Shown here piece by piece: positions 3,605 through 63,092 of a stretch of DNA of 64,000 bases (its first letter is position 1; every line of letters begins with the position of its first letter). The notes under the pieces were generated by a model. It did not search any database. It was not told the DNA's origin and saw only the letters and a list, made by a program, of their open reading frames with translations. Source of the stretch: Candidatus Moraniibacteriota bacterium. GTDB lineage: Bacteria > Patescibacteriota > Minisyncoccia > Moranbacterales > UBA2206. The position numbers and the translations under genes are program-made. The stretch lies in contig CAVZKT010000001.1 in assembly GCA_963775955.1 (NCBI GenBank), positions 85,437 to 149,436 on the forward strand, given 5' to 3'.

Positions 3605-4156
3605 ATGGTCAGTTTTTTTGAAAAAATTTTATCTGGTCAAGCGGGAAGCATTAGCTTTAATAAGAGTCCCGAAAAAATTGTTAAAGAAAAAGAAAATCTT
3701 GAAGGGATATTCAATAAGCTTTTAGCAAGCTTAAACAGTTCTGAAAATCAAGAAAATATTGACAATATTGTCGGTTCAAATTCTGCCAGCGAATTGGCTA
3801 AAAACATTCAAATGGCCAAAGATATTTTAGAAAAAACGGGACTGTTGGCCAGAAGCCACTCAAACGGCAAGGAAATTTTAAGAAATATAGAAGTTTCATT
3901 TAATGGTTTCTTGCGAAGGGATGCTGGAGCTAAAGAAAAAGGATTGGCAGGGTATGCGGATATTATAAAAGAAAACTATAATGAATTGAAAGATTTTGCC
4001 GATTTAATTATTGAATGTGGGGATTACAGAGAAAAAGAATTTGGAGATTATTCCGGATATTTAGCTGAGGACGAAGAAGAAGGTGCAAAGTTGCGGTCAA
4101 ACATGCGCGATTATATAGAAAAGTGCAAGCAAAAAATAAGAAGTCGGAGTAACTAA
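3605..4156 (+). CDS. Hypothetical protein (183 aa, helical, acidic C-terminus)
   Basis: Clean ORF tightly packed between glyQS and the next gene. No motif recognised. Confidence 0.5.
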   Translation: MVSFFEKILSGQAGSISFNKSPEKIVKEKENLEGIFNKLLASLNSSENQENIDNIVGSNSASELAKNIQMAKDILEKTGLLARSHSNGKEILRNIEVSFNGFLRRDAGAKEKGLAGYADIIKENYNELKDFADLIIECGDYREKEFGDYSGYLAEDEEEGAKLRSNMRDYIEKCKQKIRSRSN

Positions 4157-4175: not shown

Positions 4176-5149
4176 ATGACCATCCAACAAATCTACAAGC
4201 TGGCGATTGAATTGGGAATCAAAAATGATTTCCGGCCGAAAACACAAATAGAGAAACAATTAAAAAGGATTAAAGAAAAATATGAGAAACTTTCCAAAGA
4301 CGAGAAAGCTTTATTCGACACGGAGAAGCTCGCCAGTCCATACACTGATTCGCGCATTCATTTTGACAACGGAGTGAAAAATATAAAAAAAGTTATGGCG
4401 GGAATAGATATTGATAGCGCAGAACTGATGATGGCAAAATACTTAACTGATCATAATTCCAAAAAACCGATTGATCTGGTGGTTGCGCATCATCCGGTCG
4501 GGAAAGGGCCTCGCGGATCTCACGGGAGTAATGCACCTCCAGGCGGATGTCCTGGCGCAATACGGCGTGCCGATCAATATTGCCGAAAGTTTGATAAAAA
4601 TAAGAATTGAAGAAGTAACCCGGGGAGTTGATCCGATTAATCATTACAAGCCAGTGGATGCGGCCAGAATTTTAAACTTAAGTTTCATGAATGTCCATAC
4701 GCCGGCGGACAATATGATGGCCAAATTTGTTGAGGCTAAATTAAAAAAAGACAAGCCGGAATATGTCGGCGAAATTTTGAAGTCGCTTTTGGAAATTCCG
4801 GAATATAGAGAAGCGGCCAGGCTGGGAGCTGGGCCGCGGCTTTTTACCGGTTCGGCAGAAAATCGGGCGGGAAAAATTGCTGCTCACGGAGCTTACCGGA
4901 GGAACAGAGGGAAGTCCAAAAATTTATGAAAAAATGTCCCAGGCCGGAATTGGTACGGTCATTTCCATGCACCAAAGCGAAGAGCACAAGAAAGCAGCGG
5001 AAAAAGCGCACATCAATGTCGTCATCGCCGGGCATATTTCTTCCGATTCCATTGGGATGAATTTATTTTTGGACGAGCTGGAGAAAAGAGGAATTGAAAT
5101 TGTGTCATGCTCGGGGCTAATAAGATATAGCCGGGTTAAAAAGAAATGA
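4176..5149 (+). CDS. NIF3/DUF34-like metal-binding protein (tentative), at least 2 frame changes
   Basis: Fragments 4176-4610, 4471-4929 and 4877-5149 join colinearly. AHHP, NVHTPADN and AGHISSDS motifs resemble the NIF3 family. Confidence 0.45.
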
Positions 5150-5150
5150 A

Positions 5151-5184
5151 CCCCGTTAGAATTTTAATCAAAGTTCTCATGGGG
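5151..5184. repeat. Short hairpin of the CCCCGTTAGAA family (CCCCGTTAGAA...TTCTCATGGGG)
   Basis: Imperfect inverted repeat immediately after the TGA stop at 5147-5149. It shares a terminus with the elements at 11278, 29853 and 61149. Confidence 0.6.
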
Positions 5185-5248
5185 CTTGAAGCTAATTTTT
5201 TATATTTTTAATACTTATTATTTTAATAGTAGTATTAATTCTAATGGG

Positions 5249-6523
5249 GTGAAATTCAAAAAAACTACGCTAAAAAATGGCTTGCGCATTCTGACTGTGC
5301 CGATGAAAGATACGCAAACAGCGACAGTGGTTGTTATGGTGGGCGTCGGTTCGCGCTATGAAACTGAAAAAGAAGCCGGAATTTCCCATTTTCTGGAGCA
5401 TATGTTTTTTAAGGGAACGGAAAAGCGGCCGACGACGCTGGATATTTCTTCGGAGCTGGATGCTATTGGCGGAGAATTCAACGCTTTTACGGCTAAAGAT
5501 AAGACCGGATATTATGCCAAAGTGGATTCAAAGCATACAAGCGTTGCATTGGACATTATCTCCGGACATATTTTTAAATTCAAAAATGGAAGCAAAGGAA
5601 ATTGAAAAAGAAAAGGGTACGATTATTCAGGAGATAAATATGTATGAAGATACGCCGAGAATGAAAATAGGGGACGTGTTTGAAAATTTAATTTTTACGG
5701 ACAGTTCTCTGGGAAGGGAAATAATTGGAAATAAAAAGACAGTAAAAAATTTTCAGAGAAAAGAGTTTGTTGGATTATAAAAATAAATTTTATGTGTCCA
5801 ATGATACGGTGGTTTGTGTTGCCGGAAATTTTAATGAAAAGAAAAATATAAAAAGCTTGAGGAATATTTTTCCAGAATGACAAAAAGGGAAAAAACCTGC
5901 ATTTAAAAAGGTCAAGGAAAATCAAAAACAAGCCGCAGGCTATAATGCGAAATTTAAAGAGAACAGATCAAACTCATTTAATACTGGGAAATCTGGCTTA
6001 TCATCATAATCACAAAGACCGTTTTATACTGGGACTTTTGGCCATTATTCTGGGCGGGAATATGAGCAGCCGGCTATTTTCGGAAATACGCGAGAAAAGA
6101 GGTTTGGCATACAGTGTCCATACCGGTGTTGAAGCTTATTCAGATTGCGGCTATATAGCTACGCAAGCCGGAGTAGAACATGGAAATCTTGAAAAAACAG
6201 TTGGAATTATTCTGAAGGAATATAAAAAAATATCAACAGAAAAAGTCAGTGAAAATGAATTAAAAAAAGCCAAAGATTATATTAAAGGGCAGAGTGTGAT
6301 GAATTTTGAATCGTCAGATGAAGTAGCTATGTTTTACATAGATCAGGAATTAATCAGGAAAAAGATAATGAATATGGAGGAGATATTCGCCAAGATTGAC
6401 AAAGTGACGGCAGATGACATACTAAAAGTAGCCAAGGATATTTTCAAAGAAAAAACGCTCAATCTAGCCGTTATTGGACCGCACCAGGACGGCAAAAAAT
6501 TGAAAAGAATACTTAAATTATAA
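5249..6523 (+). CDS. M16 (pitrilysin/insulinase) family zinc peptidase, at least 4 frame changes
   Basis: Contains the HFLEH inverted zincin motif in GISHFLEHMFFKGT. Fragments are 5186-5605, 5331-5780, unlisted frames at 5760-5940, and 5945-6523. The start (GTG 5249 or TTG 5186) is uncertain. Confidence 0.8.
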
Positions 6524-11277: not shown

Positions 11278-11394
11278 TTGACCCCGTTAGAAATTCATCT
11301 ATAGCCAGTGCTTTCAGTAAGAACTCGAGTGAAGCGGCTTTGCCTTAGTGTTTAAATATTAGTAGCTATTTGCAAAATTTCTAACGGGGTTGAC
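11278..11394. mobile_element. MITE-like element, termini CCCCGTTAGAAATT / AATTTCTAACGGGG, flanked by direct TTGAC
   Basis: 14-nt terminal inverted repeats. TTGAC at 11278-11282 and 11390-11394. The internal GTGAAGCGGCTTTGCC module is shared with the copy at 61149-61266. Confidence 0.7.
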
Positions 11395-12804: not shown

Positions 12805-12937
12805 ACCCTGTTAAATAAATTTTGCTAAAGCAAAATTAGATTTGAGAAAAACCGGGTGGATGGGTAAATCAAAAGTAATCATTAGAAAAATAAGGCGATT
12901 CTATAAAAGAATAGACTCAAATCTTATTTAACAGGGT
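12805..12937. mobile_element. MITE-like element (ACCCTGTTAAATAA ... TTATTTAACAGGGT) between atpE and atpF
   Basis: 14-nt perfect terminal inverted repeats. Related to the CCCCGTTAGAA family. The right end is 2 nt from the atpF ATG. Confidence 0.65.
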
Positions 12938-15353: not shown

Positions 15354-16312
15354 ATGGCCAGCTCAAAAGACATCAGACGTCGCATAAAGTCTATCAATAA
15401 CACCAAAAAAATAACCCGCGCGATGGAGATGGTTTCGGCTGCCAAAATGAGAAAAGCAGTAGCTTCGGTTTTCGCTATCCGCGCTTATGCGCATAGCGCC
15501 TGGAGCGTGCTCACGAACTTGGCGCGCGCGTTTGCGGAATATAATGTTGGGCTTTTGGAAAAGCGGCCGGTAAAAGCGGTGCTTATAGTAGTCGTTACTT
15601 CCAATAAAGGACTATGCGGATCATTCAATTCCAAATATCCAAAAAAATTATTGAGCAAATAAAAAATCCGGAGAGATTAAAGCTTAACAGGATAAATAAC
15701 AAAAATATTGAATCACCGGTATCTGATAAGGACTTGGTTATCGATTTTATTACTGTCGGCAAAAAAGGCGAAGCGGTGGTGAGGAAAATGGAAAAAAAGA
15801 TTGTTGCCAGTTTTCCGGAACTTACTTATCTTCCCGGGGTTGAAAGCGTGGGAGTTTTGGCGAAAATTGTGATGAATGAATATCTGGCGAAAAAATATGA
15901 CAAAGTGGTGATAATTTATACCGACTATATTTCCACTATTACCCAGCAGACGAAAGTGAGGCAACTTTTGCCAGTTTCCAAAATTGATCTGGAAAAACAA
16001 ATCGCCGAAATGGACAATATGGCCAAGGAATACGGACTCGCGCAGCCGAAAGTGGAATATAAAATTGAACCGAGTCCGGAAATTGTGCTTACCCATATTT
16101 TGCCGAGGCTTCTGGAGATGCAGATTTATCACGCGATTCTGGAATCAAACGCGTCCAAGGAATCGGCGCGCATGATGGCAATGCGCAATGCCACCGACGC
16201 GGCCGGGGAAATGTCAGACGAATTAACATTTGTTTACAACCAATTGCGGCAAATGAAGATCACGCAGGAAATCGCGGAGATTTCAGCAGGCAGAGCAGCG
16301 TTGGAAAATTAA
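15354..16312 (+). CDS. atpG: F0F1 ATP synthase subunit gamma, frame change within 15614-15662
   Basis: KKITRAMEMVSAAKMRKA at the N-terminus and ITQEIAEISAGRAAL at the C-terminus, in two overlapping ORFs. Confidence 0.9.
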
Positions 16313-16342: not shown

Positions 16343-17756
<1,414 letters not shown>

Positions 17757-17757
17757 A

Positions 17758-18200
17758 ATGAAAATTAACTTTAAAATTGTTACTCCCGAGAAAACAGTTT
17801 TTGAATCTGAAATTGATCAGGCGACTTTACCCGTGGCCGACGGGGAAGTGACAATTTTGCCCAATCACCGGTCATATATAGCGGCGCTGAAAGCCGGGGA
17901 AATAATGCTGAAAATCGGCAAAGAAGAAATTATCTGGCGATTTCCGGAGGCTTTATTGAATTTAATAAAAATAATCTGGTGGTTTTGGCGGATACGGCGG
18001 AAAGGGCGGAAGAAATTGATTTGAAACGCGCGGAAGAAGCCAAAGCGAGAGCCGAAAAGGTGATGAAAGAAAGGGTCAGAATGGACGATTCTGAATACGC
18101 ACGCGTGGCCGCGGCGATTGAAAAAGAAATGGCGCGGCTTCGGGTCGGTCGAAAACATAGAACAAGAGGGAGTATTAACCTTGGCAATTTTTCAGAATAA
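17758..18200 (+). CDS. atpC: F0F1 ATP synthase subunit epsilon, frame change near 17940-18000
   Basis: IVTPEKTVFESEIDQATLPVADGEVTILPNH plus the helical C-terminus AERAEEIDLKRAEEAKARAE in a second frame. Confidence 0.88.
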
Positions 18201-21331: not shown

Positions 21332-23197
21332 ATGTGCGGAATCGTGGGTTATATCGGCAAACAAAAAGCGGTGCCGATCCTTATTGAAGGGCTAAAAAGA
21401 CTGGAATACCGGGGCTATGACAGCGCCGGTTTAGCCGTAATTGGAAAGAATAAAATTACAAATGTTAAAGCTGTCGGAAGAGTGGCGGAACTTGAAAATA
21501 AAATCAACGGCCTGCCCGCATCGCTATGCGAAGCATTGCAGGCGGGGAAAAATATTTCAGGAACAATTGGCATAGCGCACACCCGTTGGGCGACGCACGG
21601 AAAACCAAGTGACAGAAATTCCCATCCCCACTCCGATTGCAAAAAAGAAATATACCTTGTCCACAATGGAATCATAGAAAATTATAAAGAACTGAAAGAA
21701 CGGTTAACTAAAAAAGGCCATAAATTTACTTCTGAAACCGACAGTGAAGTTATTGCGCATCTCATTGAAGAATTTAATAAAAAATTAGATTTTAAAAATT
21801 CAGTCATTGAAGCGCTGGAACTGCTTAAAGGAACTTATGGCTTGGCCATTATCAGCAAGCGGGAGCCGGACAAAATAATCGCCGCGCGAATGGGCAGTCC
21901 TTTGGTAATCGGGCTCGGGCGCGATGAAAATATCATTGCTTCCGATGTTTCGGCGATTGTGCGGCACACCGGTCAGGTGATATACCTTGATGACGGAGAA
22001 GTGGCGATTGTCGCGCCGGAAAACTACGAAGTGATAAATATCAAAAAGAAAAAAGTTGAAAAGAAAATCACTAGGCTTGACTGGTCTGTTGAAAAGGCGG
22101 AAAAGGGAGGCTGCGCCCATTTTATGCTCAAGGAAATTTTTGAACAGCCGCATACGATTGAAGATGCAATTCGGGGAAGGTTGGTTGTGCCCGAAGGAAT
22201 GGCAAAATTAGGAGGACTGCGAGATGTCGCAGAACGCTTAAGAGATATTAAAAAAATTATTATTGTCAGCTGCGGAACTTCGTATTATGCCGGGCTTATT
22301 GGCGAATATATGATTGAAGAATACGCTGGAATTCCAGTGGAAGTGGAATATGCCAGCGAATTCCGCTACCGAAAACCAATACTGGGTAAAAATACCGCAG
22401 TGATTGCCATCTCCCAATCCGGTGAAACAGCGGATACTTTGGAAGCGGTGCGAGAGGCAAAAAATAAAGGCGCGCTGGCCCTGGGAATAGTGAATACAGT
22501 CGGATCTACGATTGCCCGGGAAACTGACGCCGGGGTTTACAATTATGCCGGGCCGGAAATTGGGGTGGCTTCAACCAAATCTTTCACTTCGCAGCTTAGC
22601 ATTTTTGTTTTGATAACTCTGATGCTCGGACGACAGCGGGAAATGTCATTTGTGATGGGTAAAAGAATCGCCGGCGAAATGGCAAAAATTCCGAAATTAA
22701 TAAATGTCGTGCTAGAAAAAAGTAGCGACATTAAAAAAATCGCAGCTAAATATCTGAAATATGAAAATTTTTTGTATCTGGGAAGAAAATATAATTTTCC
22801 CATTGCCTGCGAAGGAGCGCTAAAGATAAAAGAAATTTCCTATGTCCACGCGGAAAGATATCCGACGGGCGAAATGAAGCACGGGCCCATCGCCCTGATT
22901 TCCAAAAATTTTCCTTCCATTTTTATTGCTCCACGGGACAGCGTGTATGAAAAAAATATTTCGGGCATGCAGGAAATAAAAGCGCGAGGCGGAAAAATAA
23001 TTGCCATTGCCACCAAGGGGGACAAGGAAATAAAGAAACTGGCCGATGATGTGATTTATATCCCCAAAACCCTGGAGATGCTCACGCCGTTGTTGTCCGT
23101 CGTGCCGTTGCAACTTTTCGCGTATTATGTCGGAACATTAAAAGGCTTTGATGTGGATAAACCCCGTAACCTGGCAAAGTCAGTAACAGTAGAATAG
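21332..23197 (+). CDS. glmS: Glutamine--fructose-6-phosphate aminotransferase
   Basis: MCGIVGY start, GIAHTRWATHG, two SIS domains, C-terminal DVDKPRNLAKSVTVE. Confidence 0.97.
   Translation: MCGIVGYIGKQKAVPILIEGLKRLEYRGYDSAGLAVIGKNKITNVKAVGRVAELENKINGLPASLCEALQAGKNISGTIGIAHTRWATHGKPSDRNSHPHSDCKKEIYLVHNGIIENYKELKERLTKKGHKFTSETDSEVIAHLIEEFNKKLDFKNSVIEALELLKGTYGLAIISKREPDKIIAARMGSPLVIGLGRDENIIASDVSAIVRHTGQVIYLDDGEVAIVAPENYEVINIKKKKVEKKITRLDWSVEKAEKGGCAHFMLKEIFEQPHTIEDAIRGRLVVPEGMAKLGGLRDVAERLRDIKKIIIVSCGTSYYAGLIGEYMIEEYAGIPVEVEYASEFRYRKPILGKNTAVIAISQSGETADTLEAVREAKNKGALALGIVNTVGSTIARETDAGVYNYAGPEIGVASTKSFTSQLSIFVLITLMLGRQREMSFVMGKRIAGEMAKIPKLINVVLEKSSDIKKIAAKYLKYENFLYLGRKYNFPIACEGALKIKEISYVHAERYPTGEMKHGPIALISKNFPSIFIAPRDSVYEKNISGMQEIKARGGKIIAIATKGDKEIKKLADDVIYIPKTLEMLTPLLSVVPLQLFAYYVGTLKGFDVDKPRNLAKSVTVE
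21511..21549. repeat. Hairpin element P1 (inverted copy) translated in frame within glmS
   Basis: CCTGCCC-GCATCGCTATGCGAAGCATTGC-AGGCGGGG. The core is the exact reverse complement of the tgt copy. Confidence 0.85.
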
Positions 23198-23215
23198 CAA
23201 GGGATATGATGCCTG

Positions 23216-23246
23216 CCCCGCACCAAGCGAAGCTTTGGTGCCGGGG
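23216..23246. repeat. Hairpin element P2 (CCCCGCACCAAGC-GAA-GCTTTGGTGCCGGGG)
   Basis: Read directly. A second copy with a flipped loop is at 30921-30951. Confidence 0.85.
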
Positions 23247-23290
23247 TGGATAAGCCTCGGAATCTGGCAAAAAGTGTGACAGTTGAATAG
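23246..23290 (+). other. Second, untranslated copy of the last 14 glmS codons plus stop
   Basis: Encodes VDKPRNLAKSVTVE*, identical to 23153-23197, with 10 nt differences in 8 codons, all synonymous. It is 48 nt downstream of the real stop and in the same frame. Confidence 0.9.
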
Positions 23291-29852: not shown

Positions 29853-29948
29853 ACCCTGTTAGAAATTAAGCAGAATTTTTTGCGGGGAGATTTTAATTAT
29901 TTATGTAATTTTGCTGTTTTTAACAGACGGCAGAATTTCTAACGGGGT
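29853..29948. mobile_element. MITE-like element (ACCCTGTTAGAAATT ... GAATTTCTAACGGGGT) abutting folD
   Basis: Terminal inverted repeats of the CCCCGTTAGAA family. The right end overlaps the probable GTG start of folD (29947). Confidence 0.65.
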
Positions 29949-30806: not shown

Positions 30807-30889
30807 TGCCCGAGGAGAGAGTCGAACTCTCATGAGATTGCTCTCACACGATTTTGAGTCGTGCGTGTCTGCCATTCCACCACTCGGGC
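30807..30889 (-). tRNA. tRNA-Leu (anticodon CAA)
   Basis: Folded by hand. Acceptor GCCCGAG/CUCGGGC, anticodon stem CACGA/UCGUG with loop CUCAAAA, long variable arm, T arm GAGAG-UUCGACU-CUCUC, discriminator A. CCA is not encoded. Confidence 0.9.
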
Positions 30890-30920
30890 ACCATTTGTGC
30901 GGGGTAAATCTGCCAGCTTG

Positions 30921-30951
30921 CCCCGCACCAAGCTTCGCTTTGGTGCGCGGG
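30921..30951. repeat. Hairpin element P2 (CCCCGCACCAAGC-TTC-GCTTTGGTGCGCGGG)
   Basis: Same stem as 23216-23246 with the loop reverse-complemented. An additional GCGGGG (30899-30904) pairs with CCCCGC. Confidence 0.85.
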
Positions 30952-30990
30952 TTCCGCCATCTCGGCAAATATGATATACTGGAGTTAATT

Positions 30991-60337: not shown

Positions 60338-61041
60338 ATGGTGTTGGGCGGTTACCAAAAACTTACCCTCATTGATTATCCCGGAAAAATTGCCACCACG
60401 GTTTTTACGGTTGGCTGCAGTTTTCGCTGTCCGTTTTGCCATAATCCGGAATTAGTTAAACATGGAACATGGAACATGGAACAAAGAACAACGATGGAAA
60501 AAGAGTTTTTTGAGTTTTTGAAAAAAAGCAAAGGCAAGCTGGAAGGCGTGTGCATTACTGGAGGCGAGCCGGCGATCCAGCCTGATTTGGAAGAATTTAT
60601 CAAAAAAATAAAAAAGCTGGGTTTTTTGGTAAAGCTGGATACTAATGGCAGCCGGCCGGATGTGCTCAAGAAACTTATGGATAAAAAACTTCTGGATTTT
60701 GTGGCAATGGACATAAAAAGCAGCTCGAAAAATTATATTAAAACGACAGGATTAAAAGTGGATATCAAAAGGATAAAATTAAGCGTTAATTTGATAATGA
60801 AACAGCAAACTGCCGTATGAATTTCAGAACTACGGTTGTGCCCGGCATCCACACGGAAAAAGATTTTGAGGAAATCGCCAAATGGATCAAAGGCGCCAAG
60901 ACTTATTATCTCCAGGAATACCGCGAAATTAAAATTCTGGATCCCAAGCTTAAGAAAAAAACCAAAGGCAAAACCATTGATCTGGAAAAAATTAAGAAAA
61001 AAATCGAGAAAAATTTCGGGAAGATGGGAATCAGGAGGTAA
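60338..61041 (+). CDS. nrdG: Anaerobic RNR activating enzyme (radical SAM), 2 frame changes near 60800-60825
   Basis: CSFRCPFCHN cluster, ITGGEP. YEFRTTVVPG is readable only after removing one A (AAA run) and one base in ATTTCAG. Confidence 0.88.
60461..60482. repeat. CATGGAA x3 array inside nrdG
   Basis: The 22-mer CATGGAACATGGAACATGGAAC is identical to 36663-36684. Translated as HGTWNMEQ. Confidence 0.9.
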
Positions 61042-61051
61042 AATCATACCT

Positions 61052-61383
61052 ATGAGAATTTATATAAAAGTCCTGCCTCGTTCGTCAAAAAATGAGGTCG
61101 CGAAAGTTTCCGAAGGGGAATATAAAGTGAAGCTGACCGCCCCACCAATTGACCCCGTACGAAGTTCATCAACAATTTTGTTTTTACAAACACGCTCAAG
61201 CGAAGCGGCTTCGCCTCTATATTTTTCTGTCAGCAAGCGCTTCTCAAAACTTCTAACGGGGTTGACGGCGCGGCCAATAAAATGCTATTAGATATACTAG
61301 CGGAGTATTTTAGTATTAGCAGAAGTTCGTTAAAAATCATCGGCGGAAAAACTGCCAGGGTTAAATTAGTAGAAATTTCATAA
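61052..61383 (+). pseudogene. yggU: DUF167/YggU family gene interrupted by a 113-nt MITE-like insertion
   Basis: MRIYIKVLPRSSKNEVAKVSEGEYKVKLTAPPID (frame 2) resumes as GAANKMLLDILAEYFSISRSSLKIIGGKTARVKLVEIS* (frame 1) after the insertion. Confidence 0.8.
61149..61266. mobile_element. MITE-like element (CCCGTACGAAGTT ... AACTTCTAACGGGG) flanked by direct TTGAC, inside yggU
   Basis: TTGAC at 61149-61153 and 61262-61266. The internal CTCAAGCGAAGCGGCTTCGCC module matches the copy at 11278-11394. Confidence 0.75.
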
Positions 61384-61399
61384 ATTTAAGGAGGTTTTT

Positions 61400-61594
61400 A
61401 TGAGAGATGCGATGGAAATAGCGGGGAAAAATAAGAGATTCAGCAATCCATTAGATTGGGATATGACGACTCTTCGCATAGAACACGATCGTGAATATAC
61501 TCCTCTGGGTAGGCCTATTTACAAAGGAGAAAGACCAAGCGATATTATAAGAAAATGTCGTGAGGCGGAAAAAGAGTTAAGGAAAACTATATAG
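61400..61594 (+). CDS. Hypothetical small protein (64 aa)
   Basis: AAGGAGG RBS 7 nt upstream, followed by a terminator. Confidence 0.55.
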   Translation: MRDAMEIAGKNKRFSNPLDWDMTTLRIEHDREYTPLGRPIYKGERPSDIIRKCREAEKELRKTI

Positions 61595-61624
61595 GGGGCG
61601 GAGAAATCCACCCCTTCTTTTTTT
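61595..61624 (+). terminator. Rho-independent terminator
   Basis: GGGGCGGA-GAAA-TCCACCCC followed by a T-rich run. Confidence 0.8.
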
Positions 61625-61628
61625 AGAG

Positions 61629-61634
61629 TATAAT
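61629..61634 (+). promoter_or_regulatory. -10 box TATAAT, 6 nt upstream of the comEC ATG (leaderless geometry)
   Basis: TATAAT at 61629-61634, ATG at 61641. Confidence 0.45.
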
Positions 61635-61640
61635 AACTTT

Positions 61641-63092
61641 ATGACCAAATCCAAAATCTTCCTCGTTTTATCTTTAAGTTTTATTTCCGGAATTTTTTTA
61701 GCGTCTTTTTTCAAACTAGATGCTTTTTTATTTTACGCGCTGGCGGTAATTTCCGTCATAATTGTTACCTTGGGTTATAAAAATAAAATCGCACTGATTG
61801 TGGGGTTGGCAATTTTATTTCTGGCATTGGGAATCTGGCGGACGCAAAGCGATCTTCAAAAAATTGCGGAAAATAATCTGGACGGAAAAAATATTTCTGA
61901 AAATGTGGTGGTCGCCAAAGAGCCGGAGGAAAAAGATAATTACAAAAATATTGTGGTAAAAACAGAAGAAGGGCTAAAAGTTTTAGTACGCGCGAACATT
62001 AATTCTGACATAAATTACGGCGATGAATTAAAAATTGAATGCGCGCTGAAAATTCCGGAAAACAAGGAAGATTTTGATTATAAAATGTATTTAGCCAAGG
62101 ACAAAATTTTCTATCTTTGCCAAGGCGCCAAATTCGAGAAAACCGGAAATAATCGGGGCAACAAACTCTATGCGGGAATATTAAATTTAAAAAACAAAAT
62201 GGCGGGCAATATCAACCGCGTGGTTCCCTATCCGGAATCGGCTTTGGGAAGCGGGCTTATTTTCGGCGGAAGCGGAGATTTGCCGAAGGAACTGAAAAAT
62301 AATTTTTCCCGCACCGGCATGACCCATATCGTGGCTGTTTCCGGCTATAATGTCACAATCATCGCGGAATATCTGATTTTATTCGGCATATTTTTCGGAC
62401 TTGGGAGAAAACAAGCTTTTTGGTTCGCGATTTTCGGAATAATTTTATTTGTAACGATGATCGGCCTCCCTTCCTCGGCGGTGCGCGCCGGAGTGATGGG
62501 TTCACTTCTGCTTTGGGCGATGAAAAACGGGCGGCTCGCCAATTCCTGGAACGCCATAATTTTTGCCGGCGCGGTGATGCTTTTCATTAACCCGCTGGTT
62601 TTGCGCTGGGATATCGGGTTCCAGCTTTCATTTCTGGCGGCCATCGGCATAATCGCGCTCGCGCCTTTTTGGGAAAAGGTGTTTATTAAAAACCACAAAG
62701 CATTAGGCTTTTCCGAAATATTTTTTTTGACTTTTTCGGCTCAGATTTTTGTCCTGCCGGTGATTCTTTATAATTTTCAAACTCTGTCAGTCGTATCTCT
62801 GGCCGCCAATTTGTTGATTTTTCCCGTCATTCCCGTTTCCATGCTCCTGGTTTTCTTGACCGCGGTTGCCGGATTGATTTTTACAACCCTGTCTTTGCCC
62901 TTTGCCTGGCTGGCGTATCTTCCGCTAAAATACGAGGTGTGGATAATTGAGACTTTGGGAGGCCTGACTTGGGCCAGCAAGCCAATAAAAAGTTTTGGCT
63001 GGCAAGGATTCTTTTTATGGTATCTGGCGCTGGGTCTGGCGGTTTATCTATTAAAGAAAAAATTAAATGCTAAACCGGAAAATAATTTATAG
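61641..63092 (+). CDS. comEC: ComEC/Rec2 DNA internalisation channel (DUF4131 plus competence domain)
   Basis: 483 aa, polytopic. GMTHIVAVSGYNVTII motif. Confidence 0.88.
   Translation: MTKSKIFLVLSLSFISGIFLASFFKLDAFLFYALAVISVIIVTLGYKNKIALIVGLAILFLALGIWRTQSDLQKIAENNLDGKNISENVVVAKEPEEKDNYKNIVVKTEEGLKVLVRANINSDINYGDELKIECALKIPENKEDFDYKMYLAKDKIFYLCQGAKFEKTGNNRGNKLYAGILNLKNKMAGNINRVVPYPESALGSGLIFGGSGDLPKELKNNFSRTGMTHIVAVSGYNVTIIAEYLILFGIFFGLGRKQAFWFAIFGIILFVTMIGLPSSAVRAGVMGSLLLWAMKNGRLANSWNAIIFAGAVMLFINPLVLRWDIGFQLSFLAAIGIIALAPFWEKVFIKNHKALGFSEIFFLTFSAQIFVLPVILYNFQTLSVVSLAANLLIFPVIPVSMLLVFLTAVAGLIFTTLSLPFAWLAYLPLKYEVWIIETLGGLTWASKPIKSFGWQGFFLWYLALGLAVYLLKKKLNAKPENNL

Follow-up and report, generated by a model that had tools for sequence, protein, structure and literature searches.

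The window analysed here, a stretch of 64,000 nucleotides from a Candidatus Moraniibacteriota bacterium, carries a yggU (DUF167) gene whose two halves are separated by 113 nt of foreign sequence (Table 1). On the side of codon 34 the gene reads ...ACC GCC CCA CCA ATT GAC, with GAC at 61151-61153, and on the 3' side of the 113 nt it continues as GGC GCG GCC AAT AAA ATG. An earlier note on this DNA, made from the sequence alone, had proposed that the gene is split at an exact junction, and its coordinates hold. Excising 61154-61266, as that note suggested, is equivalent to excising the element (61153-61261) together with the right-hand TTGA, and both operations give the same 72-residue protein, in which the TAPPxDGxAN junction is restored and the invariant columns are all kept.

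Table 1. Features of the interrupted yggU gene, related copies in the window and in-frame family members elsewhere. Positions are those of the window; the last four rows refer to loci in other genomes.
Feature	Position or locus	Strand	Remarks
yggU (DUF167), whole interrupted gene	61052-61383	+	ATG at 61052, TAA at 61381-61383
yggU codons 1-34, MRIYIKV...KLTAPPID	61052-61153	+	final base C 61153 now comes from the element
Left TTGA target-site duplication	61149-61152		identical flanks; family flanks
MITE, 109 nt	61153-61261	+	termini, TTGA flanks, related copies
Left terminal inverted repeat CCCCGTACGAAGTT	61153-61166	+	TACG variant of consensus TTAG
Conserved subfamily core hairpin GCGAAGCGGCTTCGC, then T-rich tract	61200-61214	+	terminator-like
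Right terminal inverted repeat AACTTCTAACGGGG	61248-61261	+	
Right TTGA target-site duplication	61262-61265		C 61266 originally completed codon D34
yggU codons 35-72 (GAANKMLLDIL...VKLVEIS) and stop	61267-61383	+	no longer in the frame of codons 1-34
Read-through ORF actually encoded, 79 aa	61052-61291	+	34 native and 45 element/out-of-frame residues
Family copy, 99 nt, duplication TGAA	5151-5249	+	between the upstream gene stop and the M16 peptidase gene start
Closest copy, 108 nt, duplication TTGA	11282-11389	+	70% identical to the yggU copy
Distant relative, 131 nt, termini CCCTGTTAAATAA / TTATTTAACAGGG	12806-12936	+	between atpE and atpF
Family copy, 94 nt	29854-29947	+	immediately upstream of folD
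In-frame insert	L111		release factor 2 (prfB), Parcubacteria GW2011_GWA2_42_14
In-frame insert	L096		glutamate 5-kinase (proB)
In-frame insert	L058		Memo-family protein
In-frame insert	L031		indolepyruvate-ferredoxin-oxidoreductase-like protein

The rejoined protein matches Pfam DUF167 far beyond chance and over its full length (residues 2-72 on profile positions 3-76 of 76; E 1.2e-20), and also matches E. coli YggU, PDB 1n91 (E 1.8e-08). An alignment was built from 40 of the 344 matches obtained at E ≤ 1e-5. These 40 orthologues, from Moranbacteria, are 65-81% identical to the rejoined protein and 72-89 aa long, most of them 72-74 aa; the named orthologues belong to Candidatus Moranbacteria or Parcubacteria. 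All 21 invariant and all 16 near-invariant DUF167 columns of this alignment are present in the rejoined YggU. The earlier note had also proposed that relatives be compared for an empty site, and in all 40 aligned orthologues the position between D34 and G35 is free of extra residues. The uninterrupted site would read ATTGACGGC. A search of JGI metagenomes for the junction between yggU and the element, using degenerate codons for K-L-T-A-P-P-[IV]-D followed by CCCGT, returned no contig.

The AlphaFold model of YggU (pLDDT 93.4) places strands at residues 2-8, 15-20 and 23-27 and a helix at 36-48. Together with the alignment, it locates the insertion point D34/G35 in the invariant loop T-A-P-P-x-D-G-x-A-N, directly before helix 1. 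The site is therefore not a variable, insertion-tolerant region of the protein surface. The gene is small, and no characterisation of YggU function was found in the literature searched. Directly 3' of yggU lies a 64-aa ORF (61400-61594) with a strong Shine-Dalgarno sequence, for which there is no Pfam match and no relative at 90% identity. At the orthologous loci L001 and L002, this ORF is apparently missing between yggU and comEC. Exact-protein look-ups of ComEC, NrdD, the C-terminal fragment of nrdG and a 183-aa ORF at 3605-4156 returned no contigs.

The 113 nt resolve into a 109-nt element and a second, 4-bp copy of TTGA. The 14-nt termini are imperfect inverted repeats, complementary at 12 of 14 positions, and the element folds, as RNA or single-stranded DNA, as a long hairpin closed by these repeats. 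The clean before/after footprint described previously can thus be given in full: element, termini, duplication and empty orthologous sites. The left end CCCCGTACGAA, the TACG variant, is common to three other members, L135, L141 and L146. As these are intergenic, the idea that the change from GTTAGA to GTACGA in the left terminus consists of synonymous changes under selection in the yggU frame was rejected.

We class the insert as a MITE on the basis of its small size (109 nt, below the limit of 300 bp) without coding capacity of its own, its terminal inverted repeats, its fixed-length duplication with TTGA on both sides, and its dispersed copies, four to five in 64 kb, combined with empty sites in 40 orthologues. 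Rfam gave nothing at the gathering threshold for the whole window and nothing at E ≤ 1 for 61100-61320, so a known structured RNA or ribozyme is not supported. The two open-frame peptides of the element have no relative among 5.8 billion protein clusters.

Three further copies with termini CCCCGTTAGAA / TTCTAACGGGG and one more distant relative were found in the window, in agreement with the earlier claim that the same element recurs here. The closest one, at 11282-11389, has the central hairpin GCGAAGCGGCTTCGCC in common with the yggU copy and lies ahead of the atp operon, in a sequence (TTGACT-N17-GAAAAT) that resembles a promoter. The copy at 5151-5249 touches a gene at each end: the preceding gene takes its TGA stop from the left TGAA, and the M16 peptidase gene takes its GTG start from the element's final G plus the right TGAA; before insertion, the site would have been an ATGA stop/start overlap. 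Similarly, the right end of the 29854-29947 copy and its TGAA make the GTG start of folD. No transposase genes were found in the 64-kb window.

The likeness drawn by the earlier note to inserts in tgt and glmS does not hold, as those are a different, 36-nt GC-rich palindrome, CCTGCCCGCAATGCTTCGCATAGCGATGCAGGCAGG. It lies at 922-957 in tgt (898-2142) and at 21511-21546 in glmS (21332-23197), in frame and in opposite orientations, and adds 12 residues to each protein (PARNASHSDAGR and LPASLCEALQAG). A second pair of GC-rich hairpins, GCCTGCCCCGCACCAAGCGAAGCTTTGGTGCCGGGGT, 84% identical to each other, is located at 23211-23247, just past the glmS stop, and at 30916-30952, beside a tRNA at 30807-30889. 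These hairpins may be terminators or another small repeat family.

The earlier note had suggested that indel noise in the assembly might conceal a true length of 111 or 114 nt, in which case the insert would be translated as a loop of 37-38 aa and the frameshift would be an assembly error. The noise itself is real. Single-base indels, mostly extra bases, break housekeeping genes across the window, among them those for a class-II aminoacyl-tRNA synthetase and an M16 peptidase as well as atpG, atpD, atpC, folD and nrdG. Examples lie at about 2500, 4471-4929, about 5560, about 9600, about 30410, 60808 and 60825, and six more fall in atpG, atpD and atpC (a C missing near 15634, an A missing near 17931, and extra bases at 16676, 17357, 17420 and 17501). 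The two extra bases in nrdG, 18 nt apart, lie only some 330 nt upstream. Moreover, the upstream and downstream yggU frames are both open across the element, and other members of the family do form in-frame inserts in real genes (prfB, proB, the Memo-family and indolepyruvate oxidoreductase-like genes, and the yggU of L001).

Nevertheless, several observations argue against a hidden in-frame length. A Logan contig from run ERR10755944 (L003) is 100% identical to the window over 61027-62395, that is, 1369 nt with no gap and with all 113 nt included; it is a separate assembly of that run, and the window assembly may come from the same reads. In two other Logan contigs of this run, L122 (98.5% identical) and L123 (98.2%), atpG, atpD and atpC are intact at the places of the six indels in the window, so these contigs do not copy its errors. 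The codon differences between the window and these two contigs are mostly synonymous (52, against 14 non-synonymous), so they represent a closely related strain, 1.5-1.8% divergent, and not copies of the window consensus. Along L123, the indels of the window are concentrated in 16560-18120, where window and Logan diverge, and none occurs in the nearly identical part after 18120; the yggU region belongs to the stretches that are 100% identical to Logan. Since 109 nt is also a standard length in the subfamily described below, a hidden insert of 111 or 114 nt is unlikely. The position of the insertion in the invariant motif of the family, and the lack of any protein with such an insert among the 5.8 billion clusters, point in the same direction.

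The same data bear on whether the insert is an assembly join or chimera that is absent from the organism. The assembly is noisy and apparently mixes strains, which lends this idea some plausibility. However, both junctions are identical in the second assembly, L003, and a perfect TTGA duplication with intact termini is the signature of transposition rather than of a misjoin. We consider an artefactual join extremely improbable and take the 113 nt to be real.

A real insert of 113 nt could still be compatible with a functional YggU if the ribosome hopped from GAC to GAC or shifted by -1 inside the element. An identical in-frame GAC is found at both borders (61151-61153 and 61264-61266), produced by the TTGA duplication plus the C that follows it on each side. 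These are matching codons of the kind used for take-off and landing in programmed bypass, and pairing of the terminal repeats would bring them together. Every conserved YggU residue is retained. In addition, stop triplets are absent from all three forward frames of the 87-nt interior, compared with seven on the reverse strand. Both yggU frames, upstream and downstream, can thus be read across the entire element, which hints at translation. In this respect the copy resembles the Rickettsia palindromic elements (RPEs), which leave the host frame free of stops.

The weight of the stop-free interior is limited. Such interiors occur in 3.3% of dinucleotide shuffles, in 5 of 244 family orientations and in 1.8% of same-sized segments of this sequence, corresponding to p about 0.02-0.03 for a property that was noticed after the fact. 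The fewest stops in any of the 28 full-length subfamily copies is two, and a truncated one, L143, has a single stop. The TACG end is a subfamily trait and not a change peculiar to yggU. Programmed bypass has a stop codon or other stalling signal directly after take-off; here GAC is followed by CCC GTA CGA, and in that frame no stop is reached until 61289. The gap of 113 nt would be far longer than that of any translational bypass known to us, being more than twice the 50 nt of T4 gene 60, the longest of them. By our reading of the upstream-frame codons, there is no slippery heptamer of the form X XXY YYZ, the nearest being G TTT TTA. Recoding at this locus is therefore very unlikely. If it did occur, yggU would tolerate a frame-breaking MITE purged of stops in its three forward frames, and the locus would parallel T4 gene 60 and the mitochondrial byp elements on a bacterial chromosome, with a transposon footprint as its direct origin.

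With recoding set aside, the upstream frame runs to the stop at 61289-61291 (TAG), and the earlier statement that 113 nt breaks the frame is correct. The sum of 109 and 4 nt is not a multiple of 3, and the insert thus lacks the in-frame length of an RPE. An exact-protein look-up of the resulting 79-aa ORF returned no contigs. As a result of the +2 shift, the C-terminal 38 residues of YggU cannot be made, including A37, N38 and the G60-G61-K62 motif. The downstream frame has no start codon before M40, and no Shine-Dalgarno sequence was seen before M40. Judging from the sequence, we infer that the allele is most likely null. Even an in-frame insert of 38 aa between D34 and G35 would probably be harmful too. 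Both halves of yggU are perfectly conserved and free of decay, which suggests that the insertion is recent; undecayed halves would also fit continued selection.

One genome per GTDB species was scanned for both termini 60-90 nt apart. More than 118 loci were obtained, and they have a consensus 11-mer terminus in common. The hosts include many lineages of Patescibacteria, as well as Planctomycetota, Desulfobacterota/Thermodesulfobacteriota, Omnitrophota, Nitrospirota, Elusimicrobia, Cloacimonadota and others. The termini are constant and the interiors vary between lineages; copies other than the one in yggU are 82-131 nt long. Among the matches listed, 68 of 121 elements have identical 4-bp flanks, nearly all of the form TNNA; the duplications in these matches are TTTA (17), TAAA (16), TGAA (9), TTGA (8), TTCA (5) and TCAA (4). 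No description of the family was found in the literature searched, by terminal sequence and for MITEs in Patescibacteria.

An autonomous partner was sought in about 150 fetched loci, where paired termini at a spacing of 0.3-4 kb enclosed only ordinary genes or neighbouring MITEs. An rve-type integrase in L076 was considered as the autonomous element and rejected, as no matching pair of termini surrounds it.

Members of the family can be translated when they land in frame. Ten of 122 copies lie in frame inside ORFs that reach at least 30 codons on both sides, and four of these ten are certainly in real genes (Table 1, last four rows), in which the Pfam domains either lie around the insert or are lengthened by it. 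A yggU orthologue, P0117 on L001, carries an in-frame mini-copy of 47 + 4 = 51 nt, at a site different from that in the window. Most in-frame inserts, including those in the four confirmed genes, read PVR...SNG(V/A), which is one of the two frames per orientation with stop-free termini. The confirmed cases indicate that the family acts like RPEs when length and site allow. Thus, the earlier suggestion of a translated in-frame insertion applies to other copies in other genomes and is not supported for the yggU copy of the window. An excess of family lengths compatible with in-frame insertion was also considered; the count of 50 of 121, with 40 expected, is weak and not significant enough, and this idea was dropped.

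The yggU copy belongs to a distinct subfamily, which was retrieved from JGI metagenomes by its core hairpin and right terminus. The 28 loci returned are mainly 109 nt (10) or 110 nt (13) long, with four of 111 nt and one of 113 nt. Convincing coding sequence was found around none of them. Both flanks are available for 27 unique copies, including two in the window; the first two positions of the duplication are T-T in 22, and the third is G in 18 of these 22 (TTGA). The right flank mostly goes on as TTGAC(A/T). TTGA[CT] starts 22 of 31 right flanks, and 16 of the 31 also have a -10-like hexamer (TAGAAT, TATAAT, TAAGAT and similar) 16-18 nt downstream, compared with 3.3 for shuffled flanks. The combination of these two features indicates that the subfamily inserts in the -35 hexamer of sigma-70-type promoters. 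By duplicating TTGA, it leaves an intact -35 box on its right side. By our own count of flanks, the orientation relative to the promoter is apparently biased: most copies point one way, and four have TGTCAA or TGTCCA on the left.

On one contig, L125 (Ga0210044_10001054), three near-identical 109-nt copies form a direct tandem on the minus strand (6002-6287), with a single TTGA between them. This array suggests that the right end plus the duplication recreates the target of the element itself.

The target preference also offers an explanation for the copy in yggU. The (I/V)-D-G codons read ATTGACGG in the yggU of the window and GGTTGACGG in the relative L001. The former mimics the preferred target GGTTGACA, the sigma-70 -35 hexamer, and the yggU insertion accordingly looks like an off-target event in coding DNA.

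We propose the following course of events. A transposase acting in trans would recognise the CCCCGTTAGAA termini of the non-autonomous element. A staggered 4-bp cut would be made at TTGA within the yggU codons Ile33-Asp34 (ATTGACGG, resembling GGTTGACA), the 109-nt element would integrate there, and repair would duplicate TTGA. The added 113 nt shift the frame, and translation yields the 79-aa product without the C-terminal 38 residues. Overall, we assign a probability of about 0.8 to the reading that this is a genuine, fairly recent MITE insertion in yggU that breaks the frame and most likely leaves a null allele. At this locus, the event amounts to a commonplace disruption of a dispensable gene by a MITE. 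In practice, yggU should be annotated here as a disrupted gene, and neither as a sequencing artefact nor as a gene with a hidden in-frame loop. Of moderate interest is the element family itself, which spans many phyla, has a subfamily that targets the -35 box and occasionally persists in frame within essential genes. Its signature, 11-nt conserved termini with a 4-bp TNNA duplication, occurs in groundwater, sediment and soil MAGs that represent many phyla. It can be used for masking or annotating these repeats in candidate-phyla genomes, and the family is a candidate system for studying how a transposase chooses its target.

Several known systems can be compared with this locus. Programmed bypass, as in T4 gene 60 and the byp elements of Magnusiomyces mitochondria, has matched border codons and a hairpin, both of which are found at yggU. 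The gap here is 113 nt, as opposed to 27-55 nt in those cases, and no stop follows the take-off codon, so this is a resemblance only. A mobile-element origin has been proposed for the byp elements, with insertion creating the matched codons. A 4-bp T..A duplication (TTAA in piggyBac) and termini of the form CCC...TAGAAA recall transposons of the piggyBac or IS1380 type, a likeness that is a lead only; no transposase was found in the window or in the fetched loci.

RPEs, which to our knowledge are confined to Rickettsia, are short palindromic mobile repeats kept as translated in-frame inserts in conserved protein genes, and other members of the present family behave in the same way. Unlike RPEs, the copy in the window is out of frame, and the family shows well-defined target duplications and inverted termini, with most copies in intergenic DNA. 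The closest parallels are the bacterial MITEs, such as Correia elements in Neisseria, Nezha in cyanobacteria and ERIC/IRU in enterobacteria. Like these, the present elements are about 100 nt long, have no ORF, end in terminal inverted repeats and are flanked by a short duplication; they occur in many copies, mostly intergenic, often beside promoters and occasionally in genes. They differ from these MITEs in their termini, CCCCGTTAGAA, in the 4-bp TNNA duplication, in a distribution over many phyla rather than one genus, and in having one subfamily aimed at the -35 hexamer TTGACA.
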